From: Candidatus Magasanikiibacteriota bacterium
GTDB taxonomy: Bacteria > Patescibacteriota > Patescibacteriia > Magasanikbacterales > GWA2-37-8
Direction of reading: 5' to 3'
Length of the DNA: 64,000 nucleotides
Assembly (NCBI GenBank): GCA_016182085.1
Contig: JACOYB010000004.1
Location: forward strand, 4,250-68,249
Notes under the pieces: model-generated
Database searches by the model: none
What the model saw: only the letters and a program-made list of their open reading frames with translations
What the model was told of the DNA's origin: nothing
Shown: one piece after another, positions 2,215 through 47,797 of the stretch
Layout of the letters: each line of letters opens with the position of its first letter
How positions within the stretch are numbered: position 1 is the stretch's first letter
Program-made: the position numbers and the translations under genes

Positions 2215-2228
2215 TTAGAAATGATTAT

Positions 2229-2441
2229 ATGCCAAACCAAAAATTTGTTATTACTAATTTAACTTGCGCGGCTTGCGTAAAATTGTCCACCCTGGCGCTT
2301 AAAAAAATTCCGGGTGTAAGCGCAGCGGCAGTTGATCTTGCTACCGGCGCTGCCGAAATTACCGGCGACCGCGATGTGGCGTGGAAAGAAATTGAAGGAG
2401 CGCTTAAGAGCGTGGATAAAACCGCGGCTCAAATTACTTAA
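2229..2441 (+). CDS. copZ: Small HMA-domain metallochaperone (CopZ-like, CxxC = TCAAC)
   Basis: 70 aa; betaalphabetabetaalphabeta HMA pattern with CAAC. Confidence 0.6.
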
Positions 2442-2451
2442 TTTTAATTGT

Positions 2452-8700: not shown

Positions 8701-8728
8701 GTCATTCCCGCCATAGCGGGAATCCAGT
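8701..8728. repeat. Half-copy of interspersed palindromic repeat (TGTCATTCCCGC-catA-GCGGGAATCCAG)
   Basis: Same 28-nt hairpin unit as at 18108-18135, 27723-27750 and 31963-31990. Confidence 0.8.
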
Positions 8729-8816: not shown

Positions 8817-9305
8817 ATGGTAATGGCAATCGACTTCTTGCTTTCGGCCGCCCACCTCAAGCGTGAACTTGGCGAGGAGCTGTTCGAGGCTTTGGTCAGC
8901 TCGAACAACACTGCGGCAGTTCGCAAATTCGCGGAGGAGCTCGTCAAGTTGGGACCCCCCACTGAGATGACCCTCGGCGATCGCGCCTACGACATTCTCG
9001 GCATCCTCAAGGGAGACGAGAAGTCGGTCATCGGCCATACGATGGTCAGCCGCGCCAAGGAGCAGAACGCCCACAACGGGAAGGAAGAGCGAGAGCACGT
9101 CCTAAAGTATCAGGACCAGATTCCCGCCGCCCTCCGCGGCAAGGTCGTCCTCGTCTTCACCGACGACAGGCACCCCGACGACCCCGAGGGCGTCTACTGC
9201 GTTGGCTGGGACGGCAAGCGCTGGGTCAAGGACTGGCGCTGGCTCGACTTTGACGACTGGCGCGGCCGCTATCGGGTTCTCCGTCGCAAGTCCCCGCAGC
9301 CCTAG
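8817..9305 (+). CDS. Hypothetical protein, GC-rich (about 62% GC, strong GC3 bias), probably horizontally acquired
   Basis: Strong SD GAGGAGG 9 nt before ATG 8817; codon usage (CTC/GTC/GGC/CGC) unlike neighbouring genes; no recognisable domain (C-terminal W/D/R-rich). Confidence 0.6.
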   Translation: MVMAIDFLLSAAHLKRELGEELFEALVSSNNTAAVRKFAEELVKLGPPTEMTLGDRAYDILGILKGDEKSVIGHTMVSRAKEQNAHNGKEEREHVLKYQDQIPAALRGKVVLVFTDDRHPDDPEGVYCVGWDGKRWVKDWRWLDFDDWRGRYRVLRRKSPQP

Positions 9306-18082: not shown

Positions 18083-18227
18083 TGTCATTCTGAGTGAAGC
18101 GAATAATCCCTGTCTGTCATTCCCGCCAAAGCGGGAATCCAGTCGAATCAACAATTGTCTGGATTCCCATTGCGATGGGAATGACAATTAAACCGACAGA
18201 GATCCTTCACTCCGTTCAGGATGACAA
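18083..18227. repeat. Full copy of nested palindromic intergenic repeat (outer IR GTCATTCTGAGTGAAG / CTTCACTCCGTTCAGGATGAC; inner hairpins GTCATTCCCGC-caaa-GCGGGAATCCAG and CTGGATTCCC-attgcgat-GGGAATGACA)
   Basis: Seen directly; related copies at 8701, 27618-27832, 31961-32042. Confidence 0.85.
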
Positions 18228-24186: not shown

Positions 24187-24244
24187 ATGCTTGCTGCATT
24201 TAAAAATTAAAACTCTTTATATATATGATACACGAATTTCGCTT

Positions 24245-24263
24245 GTCGGGGTAGTGGGACTTG
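24245..24263. repeat. 19-nt direct repeat duplicating the 3' end of tRNA-Pro (T-loop to discriminator + 2-nt flank); att-like scar
   Basis: GTCGGGGTAGTGGGACTTG identical at 24245-24263 and 24587-24605. Confidence 0.7.
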
Positions 24264-24587
24264 GCCTCGACTCATAATGCCCGCGAGCATTATGGTCTGG
24301 CCACCGCCTCGCCATCCGCGCGAGCGGATATGGCTCCGGCGTTCAAGTCCCAACACGAGCAAAACTTTTTGCTCGTTCTACCTCTCCTCATTTCATTCGT
24401 CGGCCTAATATCGCAATTACAGAACTTCATCGGCTTTACACCGCCATCTCACGGGCAGTGGAACGCGCGCCAGAAGATCTCCAGATAGAGAGTTCCAGTT
24501 CCCATTCCCTTACCTGATTGAGCCAAAGAACAACCAAAAGGCCTCATGTGATGCAGGAATGATAACAGTTCGATATGTTCTGATTCC

Positions 24588-24661
24588 GTCGGGGTAGTGG
24601 GACTTGAACCCACAATCCCCTGCTCCCAAAGCAGGTGCTCTAGCCAATTGAGCCATACCCC
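24588..24661 (-). tRNA. tRNA-Pro (anticodon TGG)
   Basis: Cloverleaf on reverse complement: CGGGGTA acceptor, D arm, anticodon loop tTTGGGa, T arm GTGGGTTCAAGTCCCAC. Confidence 0.85.
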
Positions 24662-27617: not shown

Positions 27618-27832
27618 TTGTCATGCTGAATTTATTTGCAAGTCGAGTGAGAGAAAAGTAAAAGTTTACTTTTCCGAACGAGCGAAGCAAATATGTTTTA
27701 ACTATATTTCAGCATCTTCATTTGTCATTCCCGCAACAGTGGGAATCCAGTATCCATAAATTGTCTGGATTCCCGCCTTGGCGGGAATGACAATGTACGT
27801 ATAGAGATCCTGAAACAAGTTCAGGATGACAG
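27618..27832. repeat. Composite copy of nested palindromic intergenic repeat (GTCATGCTGAAAT / ATTTCAGCATC IR; GTCATTCCCGC-aaca-GTGGGAATCCAG; CTGGATTCCCGCCTTGGCGGGAATGACA; ATCCTGAAACAAGTTCAGGATGAC)
   Basis: Seen directly. Confidence 0.8.
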
Positions 27833-27839
27833 TTATTTG

Positions 27840-30137
27840 TTAATTATCTTTTTCTTCTTCAGGAATCAGGTCTTCAAACACCGGCGCTCCGCCCGAATTT
27901 AAAGTTTGCCTCTCCTCGGGTATATCATCGGATTCAGTTGGCCGCATATGTTCGGTAAATAGCTCTCTAGGTTTGGCACCGTCCGCTGGTCCTACTATAC
28001 CAGCTTCTTCCATTTCATCCAAGAGGCGGGCAGCTCGGGCATAGCCGATTCTCATACGGCGCTGCAGAAGCGAGGCGCTAGCTTTGCCGGATTCAATTAT
28101 TATTTTTTTAGCTTCATCAAAGAGCGGGTCTAAATCGCTGCTGGCGCCGCCAAACATATTTACGGTTCCACTGCTGCTACCGCCGCCCCTGGAAGTAATA
28201 GATTCATCATATACTGGCGGTTCATCGCCTTTTAAATTATTTATCACTCGTTTCATTTCTTCTTCAGAAACAAAAGCGCCTTGCAAGCGTTTTGGTTTGG
28301 AAAGCTCGGCTGTTAAAAATAACATATCACCGCGCCCTAATAATTTTTCCGCGCCCGGTGAATCTAAAATGGTGCGGGAGTCAATAAGCGATGCCACCGA
28401 AAAAGCGATGCGAGCCGGAATGTTGGCTTTCATAAGACCGGTAATAACTTCCACACTTGGCCGCTGCGTGGCCACGATTAAATGTATGCCAACCGCGCGG
28501 GCCATTTGAGCGATACGAATAATACCGGCTTCCACTTCGCTGGCAGCCATAGCCATCAGGTCGGCAAGTTCATCAATTATAAATACAATATACGGAAGCG
28601 GTTCGGCCGCGGATTTGTTGTATGAACCAATATCACGTTTACCGGCTTCAGCAAGCATGGTAAAGCGTCTATCCATTTCGCCAATGGTCCACTTTAAAGC
28701 GTTTACGGTTTTGGCTGGGTCGGTAATTACCGGCGTCAGTAAATGAGGAATGCCATTATATAATGTTAGTTCCACGCGTTTAGGATCAACCATTATCAAA
28801 CGCAATGTTTCGGCTGTGTTTTGGTAAAGCAAACTTAAAATAATTGTATTAATACAAACAGTTTTTCCCGAACCGGTGGAACCAGCCACGAGAAGGTGGG
28901 GCATTTTAAGCAAATCTCCGAACCAAACTTTGCCAGCTACGTCTTTGCCGAGCGCGATCATCATGTTATGTGTATCTGGGTTTTTAAATTCCGGGCTTTC
29001 CAGCAATTCGCGAAGTGTGACCATGGCTACTTTTTGGTTTGGCACTTCAATACCGACAAGAGACTGTCCGGGAATCGGAGCCTCAATACGAATTGGGTGG
29101 GCGGCGAGCGCCAGCGCCAAATCATTGCTTAAATTGGTGATGCGGGTAAGTTTGACGCCTTTGGCAGGCTTCATGGAGTATTGGGTAACCGTTGGGCCGA
29201 CACGCACTTCACCCATATCCACTTCAATACCAAAATTTTGAAAGGTATCACGGATCACTTCGGCATTGCCTTTAATATCTCCGGAAGTTGGTTTGGTTTT
29301 GGACGTATATAATAAATCAATTGACGGCAAATCACGAATAATTGGTTTAGGAATTTTAGGCATTTCAGTTTTTTCTTCGGTAATTTCTTCCTCACTTTCT
29401 ATTTGTTCATTTTCAACATCTTGTTTTGCAATTACGCGCTGCTGAAACACTCGCTGTTCTTCTTCCTCTTCTTCTATTTCTTCTTCATCCATTTCCGCGC
29501 TTGCGGTTTCTTGATAGTCGCCCTTTATTTGAAACGCGACTTTTTCATTTTTAAATGAGCCGAAGAAAGCAATAATTTGTTGTCCGAACCAGCCAAGCAA
29601 TAAAAAGAATTTTTTATGCAGTTCAACAATTTGCGCCAAGGATGTATTGAATAAAAAGATAATGCCAATAAGCAGGAAGGCGACAAGCACCATGGTGGCG
29701 CCCCAATAGCCGATATATTGGTTTAGAAACCAAGCAGGTAAATAGCCGATAAGTCCGCCACCGTACCCTTGGGTAGCCAGATCAAACATTTCTTCGGCCG
29801 GTTTTTGTAAATGAATTAAGCCGTTAAATCCGGTGATAAATAAAATTGAACCAAGCCAGTGAGTGGCGCGGTACTCGTACTCCATGTCTTTGATTATCAA
29901 AATTGCGACCAGAATTAGGATAATAGGGAAAATGTAGCGAACCTGGCCAAAGGTAATGGAAAGCAGCGAATCAATAAATTGTCCGGCCACTCCGGCGAGT
30001 GAAAAGAAGCTGAGGGCGGAAATACCGCCGATAATAAATAACAAAATAGCCAAAAGACCTCGGCTAATATCTGGATTTAGGTTTATTTTTTCTGAAAATG
30101 ATAATTTGCGGTTTCGTTGTCTGGGCATAACAGGCAT
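27840..30137 (-). CDS. ftsK: DNA translocase FtsK/SpoIIIE
   Basis: N-terminal TM helices, acidic linker, motor domain with Walker A AGSTGSGKT and C-terminal gamma domain; start at ATG 30137 (MPVMPRQ). Confidence 0.9.
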   Translation of the reverse strand: MPVMPRQRNRKLSFSEKINLNPDISRGLLAILLFIIGGISALSFFSLAGVAGQFIDSLLSITFGQVRYIFPIILILVAILIIKDMEYEYRATHWLGSILFITGFNGLIHLQKPAEEMFDLATQGYGGGLIGYLPAWFLNQYIGYWGATMVLVAFLLIGIIFLFNTSLAQIVELHKKFFLLLGWFGQQIIAFFGSFKNEKVAFQIKGDYQETASAEMDEEEIEEEEEEQRVFQQRVIAKQDVENEQIESEEEITEEKTEMPKIPKPIIRDLPSIDLLYTSKTKPTSGDIKGNAEVIRDTFQNFGIEVDMGEVRVGPTVTQYSMKPAKGVKLTRITNLSNDLALALAAHPIRIEAPIPGQSLVGIEVPNQKVAMVTLRELLESPEFKNPDTHNMMIALGKDVAGKVWFGDLLKMPHLLVAGSTGSGKTVCINTIILSLLYQNTAETLRLIMVDPKRVELTLYNGIPHLLTPVITDPAKTVNALKWTIGEMDRRFTMLAEAGKRDIGSYNKSAAEPLPYIVFIIDELADLMAMAASEVEAGIIRIAQMARAVGIHLIVATQRPSVEVITGLMKANIPARIAFSVASLIDSRTILDSPGAEKLLGRGDMLFLTAELSKPKRLQGAFVSEEEMKRVINNLKGDEPPVYDESITSRGGGSSSGTVNMFGGASSDLDPLFDEAKKIIIESGKASASLLQRRMRIGYARAARLLDEMEEAGIVGPADGAKPRELFTEHMRPTESDDIPEERQTLNSGGAPVFEDLIPEEEKDN

Positions 30138-30237
30138 ATTGTAGCATAATTTTATATTGCGAGAAAGAAAAAATATTCCAGCTTGGAAGTTTACAACAGG
30201 TTTGCTATATGTTAGGGTTTTTATAAGGGAGGAAGTC

Positions 30238-30603
30238 ATGTCCCAACAGCCGGAACTGATTTCTCTGGATGGTGAACGGCAGAAACGCTGGCGAAAACTG
30301 AGGCGGTGGCTGCGTCAACGACGGCAAAAACGGCAAAAGGCCAGAAAAAGCGCATGCCCTTGTCAGCGGTCTAAAAGGGTGCAAATTGTCGGTGTCTCAA
30401 TCCCCACGCTCAACGCTGCATACGGAGCAGCTGCCTGGGCTTTGGGTTGGTCATTGGAAATGGCGGTGGTTCTATCTGTCACTGCGGCCCTGGCGCTTCT
30501 TGGAGTATTCGGTTATATGCGCAATGGGCATGGAGTTGAAACGCAGCCGCACCTGCCAAGTTGCCCTCATCAGAAAAATGCAGAGCTATCCGCTCGACGA
30601 TAA
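30238..30603 (+). CDS. Hypothetical 121-aa protein, GC-rich foreign-looking gene: Arg/Lys-rich N-terminus, one TM helix, Cys/His-rich motifs
   Basis: Perfect SD AGGGAGG 6 nt upstream of ATG; enterobacterial-like codon usage (CTG, CGC, GCG); followed by strong terminator. Confidence 0.5.
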   Translation: MSQQPELISLDGERQKRWRKLRRWLRQRRQKRQKARKSACPCQRSKRVQIVGVSIPTLNAAYGAAAWALGWSLEMAVVLSVTAALALLGVFGYMRNGHGVETQPHLPSCPHQKNAELSARR

Positions 30604-30669
30604 CTCTGTTTTTGCTCTTTCACCTGTCGAGAGTTGTTCATGTATAAAATATTTTTATCCAGGGCCAAA

Positions 30670-30712
30670 CAAAAAATCCTCCAATGTTGCATTGGAGGAT
30701 TTTTTGTTTTTT
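30670..30712. terminator. Strong bidirectional rho-independent terminator
   Basis: aaaaaa-TCCTCCAATG-ttgc-ATTGGAGGA-ttttttgtttttt. Confidence 0.8.
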
Positions 30713-30987
30713 CTGCATTAAGCTGCGACAAGAATTGCATGTTTTAATGAGCGAATCAAATTTAGAAAACTTTCTCTGAACAAAGAAATGTTCAAGAGAA
30801 AAGAGAGAGATTTGTTTAATAAATTCGATCCGATTGAGACATCAACTCTTGCGCAACTTGATGAAGAAAAATATATTATAAAAAAATACTGCACTATATT
30901 TTATAACGAAAAAATATTTTGTCAAGTTTAGGCATAAATTTTTTATAAAATCTATTTTTGATAGAAAGTTTTTTTATTTTTTTAAAA

Positions 30988-31057
30988 CAAAAAAGCCGCC
31001 AACCAATCATGTTCCAAAATATTTAGAACATAGTTGGTGTGGTGGCGGCTTTTTTTG
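30988..31057. terminator. Long imperfect hairpin with flanking A- and T-runs; terminator for minus-strand GC-rich ORF
   Basis: aaaaaaGCCGCCAACCAATCATGTTC...GAACATAGTTGGTGTGGTGGCGGCttttttt. Confidence 0.6.
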
Positions 31058-31091
31058 CGCCTTCCATCGCACACGGGCTTGGAGCTGTTGC

Positions 31092-31523
31092 CTACGAGGC
31101 GTTCAGGCACCAGATGATGGCCGCTCGGCCCCGCGTGAGGGCCGCGTCTCGATCGGTTAAAGGAGACATCATTAACCGAGATAACAACCGCGGATCATCC
31201 CCTCGCTGCCACCAGTTCAAGAGCCAGGTAGAGTTGGGGAAATCCGCCGGCGGTCGTCGCATCGGCATGACCTCTTTCGCCAGTCGGAAGATCAGTACGG
31301 CCATCGCTTTCTGGACATGCTGTTGAGTCATCTTGTAGTCGGAGACTTTCTCAGGGAGAGGTGACTTGTCCAGGTAGGTCACTGCTTCGGGCAGAGCTTC
31401 TCGCGCCCGTTTCATCAACAGCCGTCTGGTATGTGAGCGGATGTATGCCAGCTCTACTTCACAGTGGTTCTCGGCCAGCACTTCTTGGACGAACTCATTC
31501 AAGAGTTCGAGGATGGATTTCAT
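31092..31523 (-). CDS. Hypothetical 143-aa protein, GC-rich foreign-looking gene
   Basis: GC3-biased codon usage unlike flanking DNA; SD AAGGAA upstream; no recognised domain. Confidence 0.5.
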   Translation of the reverse strand: MKSILELLNEFVQEVLAENHCEVELAYIRSHTRRLLMKRAREALPEAVTYLDKSPLPEKVSDYKMTQQHVQKAMAVLIFRLAKEVMPMRRPPADFPNSTWLLNWWQRGDDPRLLSRLMMSPLTDRDAALTRGRAAIIWCLNAS

Positions 31524-31960
31524 AGAGTTTTCCTTGTGGAGGACTAAAGTTGAACATACTAAAAAAATGTAAAAATGTCAATATTAAAAATGGAAAAGTA
31601 TCAAATTTATGGATAAACTGTGGATAAAAAGCCAATTTTTTAGCAGATTTTCAGCTTTAATGCTAAAAATACTCTAAAATTAGCCAAAATAATCATTTTC
31701 CTTGACAAACTTTAAAATTCGTTAAGTTCTTGACAATCCTTTATTTTTAGCGTAATATGTAAATACTTAACACTTCTGTGGAGAGAGAAAACGGTTTTTT
31801 GGCTTAAATTAGCGCAAATCTAGCAATCCTGGTTTCATCTGGATTGCAAAGTCGTGCAAGGAATAAATAAATTTACATGCTGGCCTTGCTTTTATTGGCT
31901 AAACTTTAAGAAAAAAGGAAAAAACGCCCTCAAGGCGCCAATTTTTGTTTTACATACCAA

Positions 31961-32042
31961 CTGTCATTCCCGTCAAAGCGGGAATCCAGACAAAACAGAT
32001 CGATTAGATGCTAGATTCCAGCTGAAGCGGGAATGACAATGA
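31961..32042. repeat. Copy of palindromic intergenic repeat (CTGTCATTCCCGTCAAAGCGGGAATCCAG ... GCTGAAGCGGGAATGACAATG) just upstream of rpoB
   Basis: Seen directly. Confidence 0.8.
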
Positions 32043-38500: not shown

Positions 38501-39437
38501 GGCTGGCGGCGACGATATCACTCAAGGTTTGCCAAGAGTAGACGAACTCTTTGAAGCTCGCGCTCCAAAGAAACAAGCTATGCTTGCCGAAGTGTCCGGT
38601 GAAATTGAAATAGAAAAAGCCGATGGAAAAATTATTACTTCTCCAAGCGGCAAGAAAATCTTTGAAGGCCGCCGCGGACAGGAAATAATTCATATTCACT
38701 TCTCCGGTGTTGATGAAATGAAGATAAAAACAAAATCCGAAGATGAGCTCATGGTTAAAGATGGAGATTCCGTACAAAAAGATCAGGTAATTTTGGTGCG
38801 CGGCTCATCGGGAGAAGAAGTCTTGGCCAAATATCCAAGCACAGTCAAAGTTGAAAAGAATACCGTTACGCTTACCTACGAAGGCCCGCATGTACGCGAA
38901 TATATCGTACCATTGGGTTACAAAGTGCTGGCAAAGACCGGTGATAAAGTAGAAAAAGGCGACGTGCTTACCGATGGCAGTATCAATCCTCATCAGCTCT
39001 TTGAACTCAAAGGCAGAGAGGCCGTACAGCGATATATTTTACAGGAAGTACAAAATATCTACTCCGCTCAAGGTCAGAAAGTAAATGATAAGCACGTAGA
39101 ACTTATCATTCGCCAAATGTTTAGCCGCGTCTATATAGAAGACGCCGGTGAAACCGACTTGTTGCCGGGTGAAGTGGTAGAAAAATCCCAAATGGATGTT
39201 TCTAATCGCCAAGCCAAAAAAGATGGCACCAAACCTGCTATTGGCCGAGAAATGTTCTTGGGTATTTCCAAAGTTGCTCTCTCCACCCAAAGCTTCTTGT
39301 CCGCCGCTTCCTTCCAGGAAACTGCCAAAGTGCTCATCAATACTTCTATTACCGGTAAGATCGACTACTTGGACGGTTTGAAAGAAAACGTAATTATCGG
39401 CCGCTTAATTCCGGCTGGAACTGGGTTTAAACAGTAA
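35562..39437 (+). CDS. rpoC: DNA-directed RNA polymerase subunit beta'
   Basis: Zinc-binding CX2C..CX2C, NADFDGD catalytic motif, full length. Confidence 0.97.
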   Translation: MNDTIFPADFDAIRLKLASPEVIKGWSYGEVNKPETINYRTQKPEKGGLFAEEIFGPTKDWECYCGKYKKIRYKGIVCDKCGVEVTHSSVRRERMGHIELSTAVAHIWFLRSVPSKIGLILDLSAQSLEKVIYFASFVITHVNEEEKKKTADLLRQEYKSKKKQIEKEGQDQIKSANDKKLGAQALEKIQEETERKHKALEEDFQQADKELKELQVMKIISENKYQELSLRYGHLFEASIGAEGVRNLLSRINLEDTIKKLEEEQSKAKGSKLERIIRRKKVLKSFFLNNIRPEWMVLQAIPVIPPDLRPMVALDGGRFATSDLNDLYRRVINRNNRLRRLLELDAPEVICRNEKRMLQEAVDALIDNNARQAKTVTASTGQKRQLRSLADILKGKQGRFRQNLLGKRVDYSGRSVIVVGPNLNIDECGLPKRMALELFKPFIMSEVIKRELAHNVRSASKYIEAEHDEVWDILEDLTKKTRVLLNRAPTLHRLGIQAFHPRLIEGKAIQLHPLVCTAFNADFDGDQMAVHLPLTAEARWEADNLMAAEKNILKPATGSPVITPKQDIALGCYYLTRYETNDTGEVKNHFSSEKEAILAYRSRVISLQERIKVRFQDVSRFAEGVNPILETSVGRILFNKILPPQLPYFNETINVKKLGHIIRLCLELTNDQQEVAYFLDELKNLGYRYVTKSGYSLGMDDFPAISEKPGMLAESDKMVAIVEEQYQEGLLTQSERHVKILEIWAETKERIVAKNQQTLRKDGPVFAMIDSGARGSWGQLGQVIGMKGLVASPSGDTIELPVKGNFKEGVEVLEFFISSHGTRKGLADTALRTANAGYLTRRLVDVSQDVIVFEEDCGDTNGETFTAAQSKEMGEKLSERIWGRYSLETIKVGNKVIIKEGETIDDKTARYVDEHKLESVRVRSILQCRMQKGVCRKCYGFDLSKNKPVEFGVAVGIIAAQSIGEPGTQLTMRTFHTGGVAGGDDITQGLPRVDELFEARAPKKQAMLAEVSGEIEIEKADGKIITSPSGKKIFEGRRGQEIIHIHFSGVDEMKIKTKSEDELMVKDGDSVQKDQVILVRGSSGEEVLAKYPSTVKVEKNTVTLTYEGPHVREYIVPLGYKVLAKTGDKVEKGDVLTDGSINPHQLFELKGREAVQRYILQEVQNIYSAQGQKVNDKHVELIIRQMFSRVYIEDAGETDLLPGEVVEKSQMDVSNRQAKKDGTKPAIGREMFLGISKVALSTQSFLSAASFQETAKVLINTSITGKIDYLDGLKENVIIGRLIPAGTGFKQ

Positions 39438-39475
39438 CACAGATTTAGACAGATTATAAAGGGATTACACAGATT

Positions 39476-39510
39476 AAAAAACGGCCGCCATTACAGCGGT
39501 CGTTTTTTGT
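39476..39510. terminator. Bidirectional rho-independent terminator after rpoC / TrmB-family gene
   Basis: aaaaaACGGCCGC-cattaca-GCGGTCGTtttttt. Confidence 0.7.
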
Positions 39511-39520
39511 ATTCCCCATT

Positions 39521-40255
39521 TTATAATCGATCCCACAGTAGCTTAAAGATTTTTCGCTGAAACTGGGCAAAAGTCGGGCTTTCAATAATAGACGCAACTT
39601 CATTTTTAAAATCAATAAATGATACTTTGTCCCGGTAAATAAATTGGGTTATATCATACATAAATAGATCGTATTTACTCGGTACGGTTTTAAATAAACG
39701 GCCCAAGCGTTTTTCTTTGCCCTTACGATTTTTGGTAATTTCATTGGTAATAATCAACCAATCAACCTCAGTTTTATCTAAAATACGTTCCCGATATTGG
39801 CGCGGAATATACCGATCATATTTAGTATGATCTTTTGGTGATTCGTAGCGGTAGATTATGTCTGATTTTTTAACAGTGCTGAGAAAATCAAAATACGCCT
39901 GGCGGATACCTTGCTCGCCATAGTAATACCGAATTACCGGTCGGTTTAGACTGGCAGCGTAGGTATGCATAAGAGCCGGAAGCTCTGTGCTTAGATTATC
40001 CTCAATGCGTCTGACCAGATGTTTTAGATTTTCCGGATGTTCAGCGCTATATACGTTACGTTTCCCTTTTTTAGATTCTAGCACCAACCCTTTTTCTATA
40101 AGGATAGGTATATGACGATAGATCATAGGACGATACAAGCCAGTGCGCTCGGCAATATCGCTTATGCCAAGCACACCGCCTTCCACGAGCGTTCGATATA
40201 TAGTGCTTTCTTCTTGGCTTAAGCCCAGTTGTGACAGAGCATCAATTTTTTTCAT
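39521..40255 (-). CDS. TrmB-family winged-helix transcriptional regulator
   Basis: N-terminal LSQLGLSQEESTIYRTLVEGGVLGISDIAERTGLYRPMIYRHIPILIEKGLV typical of the TrmB N-domain. Confidence 0.6.
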   Translation of the reverse strand: MKKIDALSQLGLSQEESTIYRTLVEGGVLGISDIAERTGLYRPMIYRHIPILIEKGLVLESKKGKRNVYSAEHPENLKHLVRRIEDNLSTELPALMHTYAASLNRPVIRYYYGEQGIRQAYFDFLSTVKKSDIIYRYESPKDHTKYDRYIPRQYRERILDKTEVDWLIITNEITKNRKGKEKRLGRLFKTVPSKYDLFMYDITQFIYRDKVSFIDFKNEVASIIESPTFAQFQRKIFKLLWDRL

Positions 40256-40446
40256 AGTATTGTATTATTAGTAATACACTTTTTATATTACTTTTTTATT
40301 TAATAAATAGATACTTTTAGCTTTATAAAATAATTATAGTACGAATTATAGTACAAATCAACATATAGAGTGGGTAGATTGGTAGAGTATAGATAGATCT
40401 TTCACAATACGAAAAACCAAAGTGTCAGATCTAGAAAGGATTGTGT

Positions 40447-41319
40447 ATGAAAACGCTTCTTATCGGTCTTGGTCAAATTGGTCTCGGCCTCATCGCTCCC
40501 ACTTTCCAGAAGGCAGGATACGCAATTGTTGGTACTGATGCGAATGAAGATCGTCTCAGCGCCCTTCGTCATGGATATATTCTCAAAACTCCCAGCAAAG
40601 TTGAGAATATAAATATTGATGTCGAAAGTATGGATAAAGTCACGGAAAATTTTGATTTAGTTGTGACCTCTGTTGGTCGGAAACATTTAGGCAAGGTTGC
40701 GGTTTGGTGCCAGGAGAAAGGAATTGTTGCTCCTGTGCTTATGGCAGAGAATCTGCCCGATCCAGTTAGTTTTTTTCCTGAGCAAATCCCGATTGTTATT
40801 GATCGAATTTGCCCCAGAATAGAAACACAGGGTAGCTTGTTGACGGTCATAGCTGAAGACTACTACAAGATTGTATCTTTGCAGAATCCGATAACTAGTT
40901 CGTTGGCAGTGGTGGAAGCCGTGGAACTCAAAGATTCGGAATTGAGCGTTGAAAGCAGAAGGAAGCAGAAGATGTTTACAGTGAATACTTGCCATGTTCT
41001 TGCTGCTCTTTTCGGCCAGCAGTTTGGTTGTTCGTTGGTTGAGGAATCTGCCAGACATCCCGAAGTTGTATCCAGAATTATGGCTGTGGTTTCCGAGGTC
41101 GGGCCATGGTTGGGTTTTGACTCTCAAGGCGCCGCAGCAAGAGCAAGTGAGATCCTGTTGAGATTTGCTAATCCGATTCAAGATTCACTGTCCAGAATCC
41201 TTAGCACAACTAACCGTACCTCTGCTCTAAGGTATATTGAGATCCCGCTTAACGGCCTTCGTTCGCTGGGTATTCAAGCGCCCGTCTTGGAGGAAGCCTA
41301 TTTGCTCCTAAGTTCCTAG
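40447..41319 (+). CDS. Putative NAD(P)-binding dehydrogenase (GxGxxG Rossmann N-terminus; possibly mannitol-1-phosphate dehydrogenase-like)
   Basis: LLIGLGQIGLG at N-terminus; divergent from sugar-regulator-like TrmB gene; specific family uncertain. Confidence 0.4.
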   Translation: MKTLLIGLGQIGLGLIAPTFQKAGYAIVGTDANEDRLSALRHGYILKTPSKVENINIDVESMDKVTENFDLVVTSVGRKHLGKVAVWCQEKGIVAPVLMAENLPDPVSFFPEQIPIVIDRICPRIETQGSLLTVIAEDYYKIVSLQNPITSSLAVVEAVELKDSELSVESRRKQKMFTVNTCHVLAALFGQQFGCSLVEESARHPEVVSRIMAVVSEVGPWLGFDSQGAAARASEILLRFANPIQDSLSRILSTTNRTSALRYIEIPLNGLRSLGIQAPVLEEAYLLLSS

Positions 41320-41688
41320 TAATATAGTCTTGAGGTTGTTCTTTCCTTGGCTCACCGTTTGTGTGGGCCTGGTTGTTTTATAAGTCGGTAGAGAAAAAAT
41401 TTAAAATATACTAGTTTAGATAGATTTATGACTATTTTTTACCATTTTTCCTCTTGACCCCGTATAATTACGCCCGAAATCGCTTATGCAAATTGCGATA
41501 TATGGGATTATTTTACTAAAGTTGATAATAATTAATTTTAAAAGAAATTATCATATAGTTGCGATTACCAATTTGCTCGGGCGTATCTATACGGGGAATT
41601 GTGGATAAGTTGAGTAAAAATATGGTATAATAATTACGTAATTGGCGGATGAGAACTTTTTCAAATAATTATTTTTTAAAATAAAAAT

Positions 41689-44600
41689 ATGCGCGGAGGG
41701 AAATTTCGTCTTTGTCGTGGCTCGGTCACGATTTTTTTGGTTTTTACTGTTGGTATCCTCGTGGCGGGAGTGCTGGCGGTAGTTTTGGTGTTGCGACCAA
41801 AAACATCGGTGCCGGACAAGGGTTTGCCAGGGATATCTAAAACAATGGGCGGATTTGTGAAGACGCCAATTGGCGCAGCTACGCCGTCAGTTAAATTGGA
41901 AAGCCGTGTGCTTGAATTGACACCGGCGACAACTAAAACATTTTTAACGGAATTGGCGCAATCTGATAAATCAACGCAGCATGTCTATGTCCGCTTGGCG
42001 CGGTATCCGCAACTGGTTGATCGGGATACGTTGGAAAAAGCCGGAGTGACGCTTCTGGATTTTCTCGGCCAGCGCGTGTATATGGCCGTTGTTTCTGGTA
42101 AATTCACGGTTGATGATTTGGGCAAACAGCCGCTGGTTGAGGCCTTGGCAAAGATTGAGGATGCCGATAAAGCTCATCAAGATATTTGGAAAGAGAGATT
42201 TTTTGTTTTTGTCGTTAAACCGGGAGAAGATGAAAATGAGCCGGAGATTAATTATGTGCAAAATTCCGACGGTACGTTGAATTTAACGGTAGAATTTTTT
42301 GCCGATGTGGCCGCATCAGTCGCGAGAAATATTTTACAGGACGCTGGCGGCGCTAGAAGCGCCATGGGGCGTGGGCTGTGGGAAGTGAAATCAGCGCCCG
42401 CCTCGGCTGTTCGTCGGTTGGCTGCTTACGATGCAGTGAAACGTGTTGATCCGGGTCCGGCGCCATTTATGGCGGACAACAATCGCAGCCGCGCCGCGCT
42501 TAATGTTGATACCGTGCAGAATTTCACCACGGCCACCAATGTTTTTGGCGGTTTGAGCGGTTTGGGCGTGCAAGCGATTATTTTTGAAAGCATGATGGAT
42601 GAAACGCATGATGATTTTAGTTTGCTTGATGCCGCTAATAATATTATCGGCAGTCGGGTTGCCCGCCATCAGCCATCGGCGCATGCTACTCATGGCAGTC
42701 ATGCTACGCATGTGGCGGGTATTGTCGGCGGCAACGGGTTTATGAGTACAAGCACTATTATTGTTCAATGTCCGGGGACACCGGCGGTCAGCGGCACCCC
42801 TTGGCTGTTCCGCGGCATGGCACCACAGGCCACGCTTCTTGATTATGCCAGTTGGGAACGGACGCCAGACGGCATTCTTGATGCGGTTGCTAATTTTGGC
42901 ACCGAGTTGTCCAATAATTCATACTCAATTACATATGACGGGGATTATAGCGCCGCTATGCAAATCAACGACCGGCTGATCCGCGGTTCGGCCGTTTCAT
43001 CAGGGGGCGTAGCAGTGCCAGGCCGATCGATGATGTTTTCGGCAGGTAATCATGGATCCTATACATATAACGGCGGCGAGCAGGTTGGCTATTTTGCTCT
43101 GACTAAACAAAATAAAAATGACACCATGGTGGGGAATTGGAATGCCTGTGGCGCTACGCTGGCCGGTGGCAACATTGGTACCAGTATGGGTCCTGCTTAT
43201 GACGGGCGTATCAAGCCGGATGTGGTTGCTTCGGGCAGCTATGTTATATCCACGCAAAGCAACAATAATGGTTACACCAACAAATCAGGAACCTCAATGG
43301 CTACTCCGGCAGTGACTGGCGTCAGCGCGCTAGTTCTACAACAATACGCCACGACTTATGGTGTCAATCTTGATGTGAATCCGCCGCGTCCTTCAACTAT
43401 TAAAGCAGTATTAGTTAATACCGCAACTGATATTGACTGGGCAACGGCCGCGCCCGCCGGCTATGTTTATCCGCCCGCCGGCGGTATAACTGGCTGCGCT
43501 CCCGGGCTTCTCAATAATCCGGCATTTTGCGTGGGTGACGGCCCGGTGGTTTTCTTTCCCGGTCCTGACTTTGCGACTGGTTGGGGCATGGTTAACGCCC
43601 AAGCCGCGGTGAATGCGGTGGCGGCGCAAACTTTATTTGAAGATCAGATCGATGTGACTGGACAATTCCGTGGCATACAGTTTAGCGTTGCTTCGGGTAC
43701 AACCAATATGCGCATGACGCTGGCCTGGGATGATGTGGAAGGCAGTCCCGCAATTCTCGATACGAGCCCGCACTTGGTTAATGATCTTGATCTTGAGCTG
43801 ACTGACCCGGCCGGAGTCGTGTTTTACCCTTGGCAGTTGAATCAAGCCATTGCTGATGTTGCGGGTGTGCCATTGCCTAATGAACAGCAATATCCTGGTA
43901 CCGGTATCGTAATTACCACTGCGTTGGCACCGACAGCCGCGCCTATTGACTGCGATGGCAGCGCTGCTGATCCGAATCCATGCATACCCCAGAACGACTA
44001 TCCGGGCACCATTCCGGTAGCGCCCGCCGGCCAGGGGCGTGATCACCTCAACAATGTCGAGCAAGTATTTGTCTCGGCGCCGGTTGCCGGCACGTGGAAC
44101 TTGCGCGTTACCGGCTTCCAGATCCCTGATCCGGCTAATCCCCAGCCATACTCCATCGCCGGTTTGTCGGCCGCCGGCAATGCCTGGCCTGACCTGACGC
44201 CGATTGGCGATGTAACTATTGATGAAGGCGCGACCATGATTATTCCAATTACCGCCGTTGATCCCGAAGGCACGCCAATCACGCTTACCGCCAGCGGTCT
44301 GCCACCGTTTGCCGCCTTTGCCGATTTGGGTGGTGGCGCCGGCACGCTTACTCTGACACCAAGTTGCACTGACACTGGCGTCTATCGCGGTCTGGCTATC
44401 ATTGCTACTGATGGCGGCGCGCCGATAAAATATGAAGGCCAATATATAACCATTACCGTTAATCCGGCCAACTGCGCTCCGGCTATTGATCCGGTTGCCG
44501 ATGTGACTATTACCGAAGGCGATACACTTGATGTGCCGGTGAGCGCTACCGATCCGGAAGGCGATGCGTTGGTTTTGGCCGCTCCTGATTTGCCGCCGTT

Positions 44601-46827
44601 TGCCGCCTTTGCGCCAACAGGTCCGGGTACCGGGGCAATAAATTTGGCGCCAAGTTGCAGTGATGCCGGTGTTTATGCAGACCGGACGATTACTGCCACC
44701 GATAGTGGCGCTCCACCCCAGACAATGACTGAACTCTTTACGATTACCGTCGACGATGATTTGGTTCCGGTGGCTAATGCCGGAGCGGACATCGTTACGT
44801 ACAGCGCCATGGCTACCGTACTCAACGGCGCCGCCAGTAGCGATCCGGAGGCCAAGCCATTGACCTATAGTTGGGCACAGACCGCGGGTACACCGGTGGT
44901 TCTGGCCGGCCTCGATACAGCCACGCCGAGCTTTACGGCACCAACGGTCGCCGCCAGCGAAACGCTTACCTTCACCGTAACCGTTACCGATTCGTGCGCG
45001 CAACCTGCCGCCGACACTGTCGTTGTGACTGTCCGTCCGCTCGTTGATGCTTCTATTATCCTCGATCGTTCCGGCAGTATGATGTGGCCTGTGCCGGCCG
45101 AGGGCGGCGGCACCATTACCAAGATGAACTCATTAAAAAATTCGGTCAATCTTTTCCTCTCGCTCTTTGTTAATGAACGCCCGGGCGCGCCTGATAAGCT
45201 CGGTATTGTTAAGTTTGCCGACAACACGGCGGCGGATACGCAAACAATCCGTCCGCTGGCCGATGTCGAACCGGCGGACATAGCGCCTGCCGGCGCCGTG
45301 AGCGCGCTGATTTCCGGTCTGACCACCGATGCGACCACGTGGATTCGCGGCGGTCTTAATCTTGGATTGGCGGAACTGTTCGGTCCGGCCGGAGTAGCCA
45401 GTCACAAAAAAGCGATGGTACTCTTCTCCGACGGCAAAGAAAATGAATCGCCTTTGACGCAGGATCCGCCGCCGGCGCCGGATGGGGTTTTAAGCGATCC
45501 TGATTTTATCAGTACGTCAGTATATGCGGTCGGCTTTGGCGTCGCTGGCGCGGCCGGCGATACCGGTATTGATGAGGCGCTCTTAACCACCATTCAAAAC
45601 GTCGGTGCCGCCGATGGTTTCGTCAATGTTACCGCCGAGCCGTTGGCGCTTACCAAGTTCTTTGTTGAGGCGTTGGCCACCATGTTCGATCAAACCATAT
45701 CGCTTGATCCGGTGACCACGTTATCCGGAGCCGGGTCATCGTTCCAGTCGGCTACCATCAGTAGCGCCGATCGCCAGGCCACGTTCGTGCTTACTTGGAA
45801 TCAGCCGCAGACCGATGCGCTCGACCTTAAACTGCGTACGCCCGAAGGTGAACTGATTACTACCGCCGACGCCGCGCCGGGAACACCGATTGAATATGTG
45901 AGTGGCGCGACGTTCAAGTACTTTATCGTGCGTTTTCCGCTTACCGGTCGTTTGCGCGGCATTCACGCCGGCACTTGGCAGATGGAAGTCAGTCGCAATC
46001 AGGCGCCCGCCAATCAGCTGGCGACCTTTGCCACGGCGGTCATGGTAGATAGTCCTAGTTTGCGCTGGATGCCTTCAATACCATCATCTATGCTGTTTAC
46101 CGGGGATGAATTCGGCATCCGGACATCGCTGCTTGAAAACGGCAAGCCGATTGCCAATGCCAAAGTGTTTGCCGACATTGAACGCCCAATAGTCAACCCG
46201 CATCAGGTTGTGGTCACGGCCAAGCTCGATCCGCGCCAAGCGTATATTCCATCTGTTCTCAAAACCGATCCGCCGTCGCCGTATGACCAGAAATTGCTTC
46301 AGATTATTAAAAACGCCCGCGGTAAAAATCCATTTCCTGTGAGCAAGGAGCGGGTGCAACTCTTTGATGACGGTAAGCATAATGATGGCAAAGCGAACGA
46401 TGGCACGTATGGCGCCAATCTAACTAAAACCAATGTTGGCGGTGTCTACCGCATTCATCTGCGCGCCCAAGGTAAAAGTTCGCAGTACGGGGCATTTACC
46501 CGTGAGTCCAGCCGGAGTATTACCGCTATCATCAAAGCTAGTCCCAAGGCATCGAATGTTACCATTGCGCCGATTACCAAAGCTTCAGCCCGTGGGACCA
46601 TATACCAATTGACGGTGACACCGAAAGACAGCCAAGGAAACATAGTTGGCGCTGGCTATGCTAGTATGGTTAAAGTAAGTGGCGCCGATATCAAGCCGAT
46701 TGAAGCGGTAGAAGACAAGACCAATGGCAGTTACACACTGCGTTTTACGGCCGACCCGCGGGCCATTCTGACTGTCCGGTTTGGTGATGAGAAGCTTGCC
46801 AGTATGGTAGTTGAAAAATCTCAATAG
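41689..46827 (+). CDS. Giant (1712 aa) secreted subtilisin-like serine protease (S8) with cadherin-like/Ig-like repeats and a von Willebrand factor A domain
   Basis: Signal/TM; HGSHATHVAGIVGG (His) and GTSMATPAVTG (Ser) motifs; three ~90-aa repeats (DPEGTPITLTASGLPPFAAF..); VDASIILDRSGSM vWA MIDAS motif. Confidence 0.85.
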   Translation: MRGGKFRLCRGSVTIFLVFTVGILVAGVLAVVLVLRPKTSVPDKGLPGISKTMGGFVKTPIGAATPSVKLESRVLELTPATTKTFLTELAQSDKSTQHVYVRLARYPQLVDRDTLEKAGVTLLDFLGQRVYMAVVSGKFTVDDLGKQPLVEALAKIEDADKAHQDIWKERFFVFVVKPGEDENEPEINYVQNSDGTLNLTVEFFADVAASVARNILQDAGGARSAMGRGLWEVKSAPASAVRRLAAYDAVKRVDPGPAPFMADNNRSRAALNVDTVQNFTTATNVFGGLSGLGVQAIIFESMMDETHDDFSLLDAANNIIGSRVARHQPSAHATHGSHATHVAGIVGGNGFMSTSTIIVQCPGTPAVSGTPWLFRGMAPQATLLDYASWERTPDGILDAVANFGTELSNNSYSITYDGDYSAAMQINDRLIRGSAVSSGGVAVPGRSMMFSAGNHGSYTYNGGEQVGYFALTKQNKNDTMVGNWNACGATLAGGNIGTSMGPAYDGRIKPDVVASGSYVISTQSNNNGYTNKSGTSMATPAVTGVSALVLQQYATTYGVNLDVNPPRPSTIKAVLVNTATDIDWATAAPAGYVYPPAGGITGCAPGLLNNPAFCVGDGPVVFFPGPDFATGWGMVNAQAAVNAVAAQTLFEDQIDVTGQFRGIQFSVASGTTNMRMTLAWDDVEGSPAILDTSPHLVNDLDLELTDPAGVVFYPWQLNQAIADVAGVPLPNEQQYPGTGIVITTALAPTAAPIDCDGSAADPNPCIPQNDYPGTIPVAPAGQGRDHLNNVEQVFVSAPVAGTWNLRVTGFQIPDPANPQPYSIAGLSAAGNAWPDLTPIGDVTIDEGATMIIPITAVDPEGTPITLTASGLPPFAAFADLGGGAGTLTLTPSCTDTGVYRGLAIIATDGGAPIKYEGQYITITVNPANCAPAIDPVADVTITEGDTLDVPVSATDPEGDALVLAAPDLPPFAAFAPTGPGTGAINLAPSCSDAGVYADRTITATDSGAPPQTMTELFTITVDDDLVPVANAGADIVTYSAMATVLNGAASSDPEAKPLTYSWAQTAGTPVVLAGLDTATPSFTAPTVAASETLTFTVTVTDSCAQPAADTVVVTVRPLVDASIILDRSGSMMWPVPAEGGGTITKMNSLKNSVNLFLSLFVNERPGAPDKLGIVKFADNTAADTQTIRPLADVEPADIAPAGAVSALISGLTTDATTWIRGGLNLGLAELFGPAGVASHKKAMVLFSDGKENESPLTQDPPPAPDGVLSDPDFISTSVYAVGFGVAGAAGDTGIDEALLTTIQNVGAADGFVNVTAEPLALTKFFVEALATMFDQTISLDPVTTLSGAGSSFQSATISSADRQATFVLTWNQPQTDALDLKLRTPEGELITTADAAPGTPIEYVSGATFKYFIVRFPLTGRLRGIHAGTWQMEVSRNQAPANQLATFATAVMVDSPSLRWMPSIPSSMLFTGDEFGIRTSLLENGKPIANAKVFADIERPIVNPHQVVVTAKLDPRQAYIPSVLKTDPPSPYDQKLLQIIKNARGKNPFPVSKERVQLFDDGKHNDGKANDGTYGANLTKTNVGGVYRIHLRAQGKSSQYGAFTRESSRSITAIIKASPKASNVTIAPITKASARGTIYQLTVTPKDSQGNIVGAGYASMVKVSGADIKPIEAVEDKTNGSYTLRFTADPRAILTVRFGDEKLASMVVEKSQ

Positions 46828-46852
46828 TATTTATTTATAATCTTCATACTAT

Positions 46853-47554
46853 ATGCCGGAACCAAAAAAGATACTCCTCGAAGAGCCATATAAGGTTTCT
46901 ACCATTCCAGTTAAACCGTGGAGCAAAAACGCGCTTGAATCCTTGCGCGGTCAGGTGAGCGACTTGTTATTTAACACCGGCGCTGTCGACCGACCGCGCG
47001 GACCGATTTTACTTGATACTACCACTACGACGCCGAAGAGGCCGCCGCGTGGACCGGTGGTCGGCGAACCTCCCGTCGAACCGGGTGCAGGCGAACCGGC
47101 AGGCGGCGGAAATCCTCTGGGCGGAGGAAATAACCAACAGCCCGACCAGCCAGCGCCGCGTGTTATTCCGTGCGACAATGTGATTATCGATGAGAGCGAT
47201 GGGGCTGGCGGCAATCCTCGTCGAGGTGGTGGCAACGGCGGTGGCATGCCGCCCGGAGCTGGCCAGCAGCCACGCGAGCGAATCGTTGAAATCCCCGAGG
47301 ATCTACAGCCATGTATATTTACCCAGCATCACACCGCGGATAACGGTGAAGGGTGGGTGGTGCTTGTCCATATCGAGGGAGGGCGCATGAAGCGAGTAGT
47401 TGTCATTGATGAGAAAGGTAACCAGCGATACATTCATCAGAATGTCGGCAAGATAATCAAGGTGCATAAAGACAATAATAAAATAACCGTGGTCGGCGAC
47501 AAGAAAACTTGTATTTACTTCATTGTCACAAATCAACTGGTTTGTTATTCCTAA
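46853..47554 (+). CDS. Hypothetical protein with Gly/Pro-rich low-complexity centre
   Basis: ORF immediately downstream of the protease, shared terminator. Confidence 0.45.
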   Translation: MPEPKKILLEEPYKVSTIPVKPWSKNALESLRGQVSDLLFNTGAVDRPRGPILLDTTTTTPKRPPRGPVVGEPPVEPGAGEPAGGGNPLGGGNNQQPDQPAPRVIPCDNVIIDESDGAGGNPRRGGGNGGGMPPGAGQQPRERIVEIPEDLQPCIFTQHHTADNGEGWVVLVHIEGGRMKRVVVIDEKGNQRYIHQNVGKIIKVHKDNNKITVVGDKKTCIYFIVTNQLVCYS

Positions 47555-47568
47555 ACAGTTTGTAAGAT

Positions 47569-47612
47569 AAAACTCCGGCCGCCTAAAACGGCCGGAGTTT
47601 TATTTATTTTTA
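47569..47612 (+). terminator. Rho-independent terminator
   Basis: aaaaCTCCGGCCG-cctaaaa-CGGCCGGAGtttta ttt attttt. Confidence 0.8.
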
Positions 47613-47797
47613 TAGGCGTTATAATGTAAAAAAATACCGTTGAGGTTTATTCTCAACGGATAGTATTTGCGCGTTAAGGCAATTCCAAAAACATTTCAAA
47701 CATCTCACAACAAGTCAATGGCCAAGCTTATGCAATAAATTGACGCACTATAAATTAAGATATACAATTGCGGGTATATACATTAAATATTTAAAAT

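Follow-up and report, generated by a model that had tools for sequence, protein, structure and literature searches.

Layout of the ftsK-rpoB spacer

This work deals with two small GC-rich genes, named here ORF1 and ORF2 (ORF, open reading frame), and with the intergenic region between ftsK and rpoB in which they are found. The region belongs to a metagenome-assembled genome (MAG) of Candidatus Magasanikbacteria, from the candidate phyla radiation (CPR) or Patescibacteria, and it was analysed within a stretch of 64,000 nucleotides (positions 4,250 to 68,249 of the 410-kb contig JACOYB010000004.1), which will be referred to as the window. At NCBI, the products of ORF1 and ORF2 are entered as the hypothetical proteins HYT15_00490 and HYT15_00495. 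In order from the left, this region comprises ftsK on the minus strand, ORF1 on the plus strand, a bidirectional terminator, a gene for a structured non-coding RNA (ncRNA) on the minus strand, a long hairpin, ORF2 on the minus strand, and the promoter and leader of rpoB, which starts at 32084 (Table 1). The wider neighbours of the spacer are ftsK, rpoB, rpoC, recA, and a gene for a helix-turn-helix protein. The maximal ORF of ftsK extends to 30239; the real start is likely to be near 30130, because relatives align only from residue 31-38.

Housekeeping genes of this host have a GC content of ~44% and a GC content at third codon positions (GC3) of ~0.40. Measured over 150 nt, GC content is 0.49-0.58 across ORF1 and 0.55-0.60 across ORF2, against 0.19-0.37 in the spacers. 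Taken as a whole, both ORFs have a GC content of 55-56%, and the spacers around them one of 20-33%. The first-pass annotation of this DNA, which reported two convergent GC-rich ORFs with Shine-Dalgarno (SD) sites, strong terminators, and AT-rich surroundings, was accurate in these respects. However, it regarded the context as odd, while tblastn searches gave 44 related loci in which ftsK precedes rpoB at a distance of no more than 6 kb, nearly all of them with both genes in divergent orientation. Nor is the sequence between both ORFs the host-like spacer that had been described, as it holds the conserved structured ncRNA gene.

The junctions of the region are confirmed by three independent assemblies. 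The Logan assembly of SRR12113430 is 100% identical to the window over 7,212 bp spanning ftsK, ORF1, ORF2, and rpoB, and a contig from a second sample (run SRR12113422) shows 98.8% identity over 1,295 bp, both with the same junctions as the NCBI MAG. The same gene order also appears in the assemblies of two other species. The sharp compositional steps at the ORF borders might have pointed to a chimera or to contamination from a GC-rich organism; with these matching assemblies an artefact is excluded, and the probability left to such an explanation is negligible.

Table 1. Position of the features of the ftsK-rpoB spacer and of other small elements in the window.
Feature	Position	Strand	Description
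ORF1 promoter-like site	30190-30218	+	Predicted; -35 TTTACA (30190-30195), 17-nt spacer, -10 TAGGGT (30213-30218)
ORF1 SD site	30226-30232	+	AGGGAGG, 5 nt ahead of ATG at 30238
ORF1	30238-30603	+	121 aa; polybasic N-terminus, CPC, two hydrophobic segments, C-terminal H-x4-C-P-H
Bidirectional intrinsic terminator	30667-30709	+/-	Common to ORF1 (+) and the ncRNA (-)
ncRNA gene	30672-30890	-	Conserved, structured, rod-like; kept in 36 related loci
ncRNA promoter	30898-30925	-	Predicted; TTGACA-16-TAAAAT, 11/12 matches, conserved in the relatives aligned
Hairpin terminator 3' of ORF2	30989-31055	-	Long and imperfect; 67 nt, bulges, -39.1 kcal/mol, z -7.2
Variable segment	31063-31557	-	Replaced between the window and the sister genome; 5' untranslated region (UTR), SD site, ORF2, 3'UTR
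ORF2	31092-31523	-	143 aa; all-helical cytoplasmic protein, GC3-rich, very divergent family
ORF2 SD site	31530-31535	-	AAGGAA, 6 nt ahead of ATG at 31523-31521
ORF2 promoter-like site	31553-31581	-	Predicted; TTGACA-17-TATGTT, 10/12 matches
Further small GC-rich ORFs	8817-9305; 60079-60219; 60493-60690		Own promoter-like sites and terminators
Copies of a REP-like repeat	8701-8727; 18116-18142; 27724-27750; 27765-27791 (-); 31963-31989; 32011-32037 (-)

ORF2 defines a small family restricted to one slot

The composition of ORF2 departs clearly from that of the host, with a GC content of 0.562 versus an expected 0.471 (z 6.4), a GC3 of 0.69, and a codon-usage likelihood with a z of -8.1. A word-indexed protein search returned only ORF2 itself, and an exhaustive search of 1.84 billion cluster representatives yielded one relative, P0005 (134 aa, 54-56% identical). 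This protein is encoded in another Magasanikbacteria genome (L070, GCA_964396295.1; RpoB 91.5% identical), where it occupies the exact slot of ORF2, with the same hairpin and the same TTGACA box as the window. The P0005 gene has a GC content of 0.60 and a GC3 of 0.73, and no ORF1 accompanies it.

The comparison between ORF2 and P0005 demonstrates that ORF2 is a real coding gene under purifying selection, as identity at the first, second, and third codon positions is 0.68, 0.74, and 0.46, respectively, and, of the 72 residues conserved between them, 35 are encoded by different codons. The reading of these GC-rich stretches as structured ncRNAs, or as spurious ORFs that stay open through the scarcity of stops, is hardly plausible in view of this coding-type divergence. 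GC-rich islands in AT-rich genomes are often structured RNAs, the ORF2b region of the sister genome described below is open in several frames, and the high ratio of non-synonymous to synonymous divergence (dN/dS) of ORF1, given below, would also be compatible with that reading. Nevertheless, the periodicity of GC content over the three codon positions matches the annotated frame, SD sites are correctly spaced in all alleles, the indel of ORF1 is in-frame, and there are no Rfam matches.

A third member of the family was found in the closest sister genome (GCA_964619625.1, which is represented by loci L001 and L005; RpoB 98.9% identical). Its allele encodes P0004, a protein of 106 aa from a GC-rich gene, which is a distant member with 26-30% identity over its N-terminal 57-79 residues (E 2.7e-4 against a set of 1,607 ORFs), with conserved positions distributed along the whole length. 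P0004 is itself an orphan in the protein search. The family is therefore known from three species, only in the slot adjacent to rpoB.

Neither ORF2 nor ORF1 has a significant match in Pfam, PHROGs, PADLOC, NCBIfam, or the PDB, which agrees with the earlier statement that neither product is recognisable. For the relatives of both proteins, nothing above threshold was obtained from the profile libraries either. Likewise, no homologue of either protein was found beyond Magasanikbacteria in the 1.84 billion representatives, in phages and plasmids (by tblastn), in IMG/VR, or in E. coli DNA. An AlphaFold model of ORF2 built from the alignment of the three sequences presents a helical N-terminal half, with a per-residue confidence (pLDDT) of 76-90 over residues 1-50 and a global score (pTM) of 0.63. 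Structure searches with this model retrieved only generic helical bundles and repeats.

Allele replacement at the ORF2 slot

The window and the sister genome L001 are 94-100% identical outside the variable segment, and 26-40% identical (that is, unalignable) inside it. The boundaries of this segment fall just past the hairpin at one end and at the -10 box of the predicted ORF2 promoter at the other, so that the -35 box of this promoter is located inside the conserved flank and the -10 box at the edge of the variable segment. The TTGACA box is kept in both L001 and L070. The hairpin is identical in L001, 87% identical in L070, and exhibits compensatory stem changes in a more distant relative, L006 (RpoB 93.5% identical); it bears U-tracts on both sides and occurs as a single copy in the window. 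As an RpoB identity of 98.9% is incompatible with vertical divergence of the neighbouring gene to ~25%, ORF2 and P0004 represent an allele replacement. Hairpins sequestering the SD site in the 5'UTRs of the slot were considered and rejected (z +0.4, +0.6, and -1.75).

Several observations bear on the way in which this replacement took place. The sequences at 29400-31060 and 31600-31900 are 94-100% identical to those of L001, whereas the rest of ftsK is 82-90% identical, with a synonymous divergence (dS) of 0.48 for this gene, a mosaic that suggests a recent recombination tract spanning the whole spacer. The low dS of ORF1 compared with its neighbouring genes (see below) points in this direction too. 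Moreover, contig L004 combines flank variants of the L001 type with the ORF2 allele of the window, with zero differences inside ORF2, and in the 3'UTR adjoining the hairpin the similarity falls off gradually, as expected for homologous recombination. From this comparison of three alleles, we infer that homologous recombination through the conserved flanks may move ORF2 alleles. According to this model, the family occupies a fixed slot, delimited at one end by a resident -35 box of the sigma-70-like type and at the other by the conserved terminator hairpin; alleles would be swapped between lineages through these flanks, and the slot would represent a one-gene "replacement islet". A scan of metagenomes with a 20-mer from the hairpin loop gave 31 matches, two of them genuine and both of the L006 type, and thus added no new alleles.

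The slot resembles the replacement-type flexible genomic islands, a concept from marine-bacterial pangenomics that designates a locus in which differing gene content is located between conserved flanks and exchanged by homologous recombination. As in those islands, the ORF2 position holds a different gene, a divergent gene, or no gene in close relatives (the window, L001, L070, and L006 versus the empty spacers of L008-L010), its flanks are conserved and more similar than the surrounding genes, and a mosaic contig points to recombination. In contrast to them, the unit is a single ORF of ~0.5 kb, with a promoter -35 box and a terminator as its exact limits, and its content consists of orphans instead of, for example, glycosyltransferases.

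ORF1, a putative fast-diverging membrane protein

The GC content of ORF1 (0.548) is close to that expected from its amino acids under host codon usage (0.525; z 1.5), with a GC3 of 0.48. Its excess of GC resides in the first and second codon positions, as a result of the abundance of Arg, Ala, and Gly in the protein. The foreign composition that had been attributed to both genes is thus upheld for ORF2, where the excess extends to GC3, and it fails for the GC content of ORF1. A composition suggestive of horizontal acquisition is found in ORF1 only in the choice of synonymous codons, the likelihood of which has a z of -5.3, compared with -1.9 to +1.0 in most native small genes.

Regarding these codons, CGG and CGA represent 60% of the Arg codons in ORF1 and 86% in ORF2, versus 10% in the host, and CTG accounts for 46%, 40%, and 11% of the Leu codons, respectively. 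Both genes had been described as E. coli-like. However, their Arg codons are CGG/CGA and not CGC/CGT, and neither gene has a DNA match in 5,426 E. coli genomes; CGG and CGA are rare Arg codons in E. coli.

The orthologue of ORF1 in L001, P0003 (117 aa), is located in the same place, is 89% identical, and differs by an in-frame deletion of four codons. Five synonymous and 10 non-synonymous changes separate both genes, which results in a dN/dS of 0.66 and a dS of 0.059, compared with a dS of 0.15-0.48 for the neighbouring genes. A more distant counterpart is present in L006, where an ORF of 137 aa with a native GC content (0.42) is found in the position of ORF1. Its predicted promoter (TTTGCA-17-TAGGAT) aligns with that of ORF1 (TTTACA-17-TAGGGT), both genes have the start context GTCATGYCC, the C-terminal ends are similar (..LSARR* in ORF1 and ..LSSRQ* in L006) with their last codons aligned, and the downstream terminator region also aligns. 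The interior of both genes is only ~24% identical, although they have in common the layout of a CxC motif, two transmembrane (TM) segments, and an HxxC motif. Another counterpart of 106 aa was identified in L012 (BLASTP E 0.004). In shuffle tests of the three ORF1-type pairs, p values of 0.003-0.012 were obtained with a liberal test that ignores TM segmentation.

The polybasic N-terminus and the CPC/CPH motifs noticed in the first-pass annotation were confirmed, as was the presence of hydrophobic segments. Among the counterparts of ORF1, two elements are kept, a C-x(1,3)-C just before hydrophobic segment 1, and an H-H/x..C placed ~12 residues past segment 2. The 17 basic N-terminal residues and the positive-inside rule place both termini in the cytoplasm. 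We therefore infer from the sequence that ORF1 may adopt the shape of a membrane hairpin, in which both tails would form a small cytoplasmic metal (zinc) site.

All in all, ORF1 would be a native, fast-diverging small membrane protein, the high GC content of which would be a by-product of its abundance of Arg, Ala, and Gly. The counterpart of L006, at native GC content in a related genome, corresponds to the kind of finding that the first-pass annotation had itself named as a refutation, and speaks against the view that this gene is a foreign cassette.

A conserved structured RNA between both genes

The ncRNA folds with a minimum free energy of -83.7 kcal/mol (z -12.3), and compensatory changes are seen in 25 of the 37 pairs predicted by RNAalifold. 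The terminator that it has in common with ORF1 folds with -28.5 and -27.8 kcal/mol on the two strands (z -7.9 and -8.1), and its stem changes in L001 and L004 are compensatory. No Rfam family matched the ncRNA at E<=10, except for terminator look-alikes. Its identity with 6S RNA (RF00013) was considered and rejected, as searches of the window, L015, and L036 with this model gave nothing at E<=10, and a central bubble of the 6S type is not evident in the predicted rod-like fold. The ncRNA might still be a divergent RNA of the 6S type. In the literature, no paper was found on this locus, on diversity-generating retroelements (DGRs) of Magasanikbacteria, or on 6S RNA of the CPR. A strongly covarying RNA that is conserved across the clade between ftsK and rpoB and is missing from Rfam is possibly the more useful by-product of this analysis.

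The spacer as a site of gene turnover

The ftsK-rpoB spacer ranges from 0.63 to 5.5 kb among the 34 related loci examined. An empty, AT-rich spacer is found in L008-L010, L016, L018, L031, L038, L041, and L068, while in L006, L007, L014, L032-L035, L043, and L045 it contains unrelated ORFs of 57-70% GC; every one of these that was tested is Pfam-negative. The earlier proposal of an intergenic region colonised by foreign genes is partly supported by these data, in the sense that the spacer is a hotspot for differing GC-rich ORFs. On the other hand, no donor has been found, as the relatives of ORF1 and ORF2 come only from Magasanikbacteria at the same slot, and neither a mobility gene nor a repeated recombination site adjoins ORF1 or ORF2.

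When placed on the RpoB tree, both the ORF1 and the ORF2 family show a patchy distribution, with no consistent co-occurrence. L070 holds a member of the ORF2 family without ORF1, and L006 has its ORF1 counterpart but, in the slot of ORF2, an unrelated gene for 89 aa, which argues for two independent genes and not for a pair. Taking all these data together, ORF1 and ORF2 are probably independent, real, lineage-restricted accessory genes that flank the ncRNA in a spacer where, in this clade, gene turnover is concentrated locally. Strain-variable orphan genes in an islet exchanged by recombination are an ordinary explanation for what is observed. The hypervariability and patchy presence of both genes suggest that they are involved in antagonism (towards a phage, a host cell, or a competitor, for example) and not in housekeeping, a role that at present seems doubtful, yet worth considering.

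Several observations weigh against this interpretation. The GC3 of ORF2 and P0005 is ~0.7 in both genes despite saturated synonymous sites and AT-rich genomes. Simple residence in AT-rich genomes does not account for this, because long residence should erode the excess, and independent recent import would require two landings in the same promoter-terminator slot. The high GC3 of this family could possibly derive from exchange with higher-GC relatives (loci of 50-56% GC exist), or from a force that maintains GC3. In the case of ORF1, its choice of synonymous codons (CGG/CGA and CTG) is atypical and similar to that of ORF2, which makes a foreign or exchanged origin of the allele possible. Its evolution between the two closest genomes is almost neutral, judging from only 15 substitutions, and its homology to the L006 and L012 proteins is weak, since it relies to a great extent on the flanks and the motifs.

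Other elements of the same spacer have been identified in the relatives. A recurrent protein of 83-103 aa ("...KSEQVKIF...WL...ITIWYREKE") is encoded at 5130-5441 in L006, 4933-5220 in L011, and 5184-5435 in L013; in several relatives, it is located on the same strand just upstream of rpoB, and it is absent from the window. In L007 (4968-5261) and L045 (5238-5441), the ORF2 slot contains ORFs of 63-71% GC coding for Lys/Arg-rich low-complexity peptides, which resemble the polybasic N-terminus of ORF1 by composition only (E ~1).

L006 also holds a DGR at positions 1199-4142, inserted inside the 3' end of the ncRNA and bordered by a 42-nt duplication (1199-1240 and 4101-4142). It consists of a reverse transcriptase (RT) at 2898-4058 (RVT_1 E 2e-23), a variable region (VR) at 1940-2072, and a template repeat (TR) at 2437-2569. 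The identity between VR and TR is 85%, and most of their mismatches fall on adenines of the TR. The target ORF (1445-2074) has a GC content of 63%, and the RT 35%.

Alternative explanations and comparison with known systems

The first-pass annotation had gathered ORF1, ORF2, and the other small GC-rich ORFs of the window (those at 8817, 60079, and 60493) in one recurrent class of small foreign, E. coli-like cassettes. The five ORFs deviate from host synonymous usage (z -3.8 to -10.8), each of them has its own AT-rich promoter-like site, SD site, and terminator, other GC-rich ORFs appear in the same spacer of the relatives, and the absence of homologues would fit an unsampled donor. Nevertheless, the five proteins share no sequence similarity in pairwise comparison, and their genes show at least two codon signatures, CTG with CGG/CGA in ORF1 and ORF2 versus C-ending codons with GAG/AAG in the ORF at 8817. 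No flanking repeat is common to the small GC-rich ORFs and no integrase was found, the hairpin of ORF2 is unique in the window, and both the amino acid composition of ORF1, which explains its GC content, and its positional counterpart of native GC content speak against this view, as do the Arg codons and the lack of E. coli matches. In addition, native orphans are also poorly codon-adapted (PMC11293555). A single class of foreign cassettes is therefore unlikely, although not to the extent of the alternatives discussed below. The resemblance of ORF2 units to integron cassettes raises a related possibility, that of promoterless cassettes with an attC-like hairpin. Indeed, ORF2 looks promoterless behind a resident promoter, the replaced segment runs from the resident -10 box to just before a 67-nt imperfect bulged hairpin, and different genes adjoin this same hairpin in the window, L001, L070, and L006. 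In contrast to integrons, there is no IntI with attI and a Pc promoter beside the spacer, no integrase-sized ORF flanks it, and the cassette is single and not part of an array. Furthermore, the hairpin stays in the conserved flank and has the U-tracts of a terminator, its inner repeats fit RYYYAAC/GTTRRRY at only 5/7 positions, and the 3'UTR similarity beside it decays gradually, so that a mechanism of this kind is scarcely credible. Similarly, the hairpin was considered as a dif/Xer or attC site, and this reading was rejected because it is unique in the window, bears U-tracts, and has no recombinase gene nearby.

The small size of ORF1 and its charged N-terminal helix followed by two TM helices are reminiscent of SLATT proteins, holins, and membrane toxins. 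One might therefore envisage a conflict module made up of the two genes, in which ORF1 would be the pore-former or membrane toxin (of the SLATT, holin, or CptA kind) and ORF2 its immunity protein or antidote in the cytoplasm. Hypervariability and a patchy distribution are seen in both genes, and ORF1 produced weak profile matches to SLATT_1 (NF033634; 19 bits against a cut-off of 41, E 0.0011, residues 22-93 versus profile positions 4-77 of 132), to the holin family phrog_881 (E 0.21), and to Cpta_toxin (13.8 bits, where the cut-off is 27.3; E 0.064). However, all these scores are far below the cut-offs, and no SLATT family appeared for ORF1 in a Pfam scan at E<=1. PADLOC was negative, and beside ORF1 there is no SMODS, SLOG, or other nucleotide-signalling gene, nor any lysis, endolysin, or antitoxin gene. 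Conserved Cys/His motifs are not known as a feature of the SLATT, holin, or membrane-toxin families. Moreover, the two genes are convergent, have separate promoters and terminators with the ncRNA gene between them, and do not co-occur in L070 or L006, all of which renders a joint module quite improbable. An origin of ORF2 from a DGR was likewise rejected, as the window lacks an RT and a template repeat. The similarity to DGR variable proteins lies in the GC-rich (63%), Pfam-negative ORF present in the same spacer of the AT-rich genome of L006, and the difference in GC content between the target and the RT of that element illustrates that a GC-rich gene can be paired with a native AT-rich partner. 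In contrast, the differences between ORF2 alleles extend from end to end instead of being confined to a variable C-terminal part. There is no RT-like ORF in the spacer of the window, and neither ORF1 nor ORF2 takes part in any direct repeat of the window, whereas the element of L006, used as a positive control, was detected.

ORF1 and ORF2, regarded as lineage-restricted accessory genes, can also be compared with the species-specific orphans of prokaryotes. Vakirlis and Kupczok (2024; PMC11293555) reported that orphans follow their host genome in GC content and GC3, and that virus-like orphans are GC-poorer. Like those orphans, the genes studied here are short, confined to a narrow lineage, and poorly codon-adapted, with signs of purifying selection. 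Unlike them, ORF2, P0005, and the ORF at 8817 show a GC3 of 0.69-0.83, while that of the host is ~0.40. Since prokaryotic orphans normally match the GC content of their host (PMC11293555), genes of the ORF2 type are atypical orphans. They pose a puzzle for the origin of bacterial orphans, namely, the persistence of a GC3 of ~0.7 through saturating divergence in genomes with a GC3 of ~0.4.

One way to account for this puzzle would be that the slot beside rpoB is a dedicated "expression dock", which in Magasanikbacteria would exchange single GC-rich orphans (the ORF2 family among them) across lineages and actively maintain their GC3, without any foreign donor. This is very unlikely. If true, GC3 would be kept either by selection acting on the mRNA or, at a recombination hotspot, by biased gene conversion. 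The dock would then constitute a means, so far undescribed, by which the ultra-small genomes of the CPR retain a fast-diversifying conflict gene (directed, for example, against a phage or a host cell) next to core genes of transcription and to a structured RNA specific to the clade. As a set of ordinary accessory genes, ORF1 and ORF2 bring a modest practical gain. The genomes of CPR/Patescibacteria are small and have many unexplained hypothetical genes, and this locus offers a clean example of orphan turnover, with an allele swap that is unusually well bounded. The slot is defined with base precision between a resident promoter and a terminator, and it is empty or occupied by unrelated or very divergent alleles in close relatives.

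Other elements of the window

The remaining small GC-rich ORFs have no match in Pfam, PADLOC, NCBIfam, phages, plasmids, or the PDB. The ORF at 8817 shows a GC3 of 0.83 and a synonymous-usage z of -10.8. Those at 60079 (z -6.0) and 60493 (z -3.8) code for single-TM peptides of 46 and 65 aa, respectively, and are preceded by structured 5'UTRs. The latter had been listed as starting at 60485, but the ATG in that position meets a stop after three codons, and the ORF starts at 60493.

The window contains six copies of a hairpin repeat resembling repetitive extragenic palindromes (REP-like), GTCATTCCCGC-N4-GCGGGAATCCAG, often arranged as inverted pairs, with 0 copies expected by chance (Table 1). 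The GC-rich ORF at 8817 has one copy in its 5'UTR, and the pair found in the rpoB leader is missing from the sister genome L001.

Two further segments distinguish the window from L001. An 8.3-kb segment directly 3' of rpoC (39437-47733) is missing from the sister genome. Its genes code for a TrmB-like regulator, a product resembling mannitol dehydrogenase, a 1,712-aa protein with S8 subtilase, PKD, and VWA domains (54% GC), and a Gly/Pro-rich protein of 233 aa. At 24225-24600, the window has ~250 bp of additional sequence relative to L001, with a GC content of ~0.55. The 12-mer TCGGGGTAGTGG is found in this stretch at the 3' end of a tRNA-Pro gene (24588), with a second copy at 24246, and the extra sequence may be the remnant of an element integrated at tRNA-Pro.

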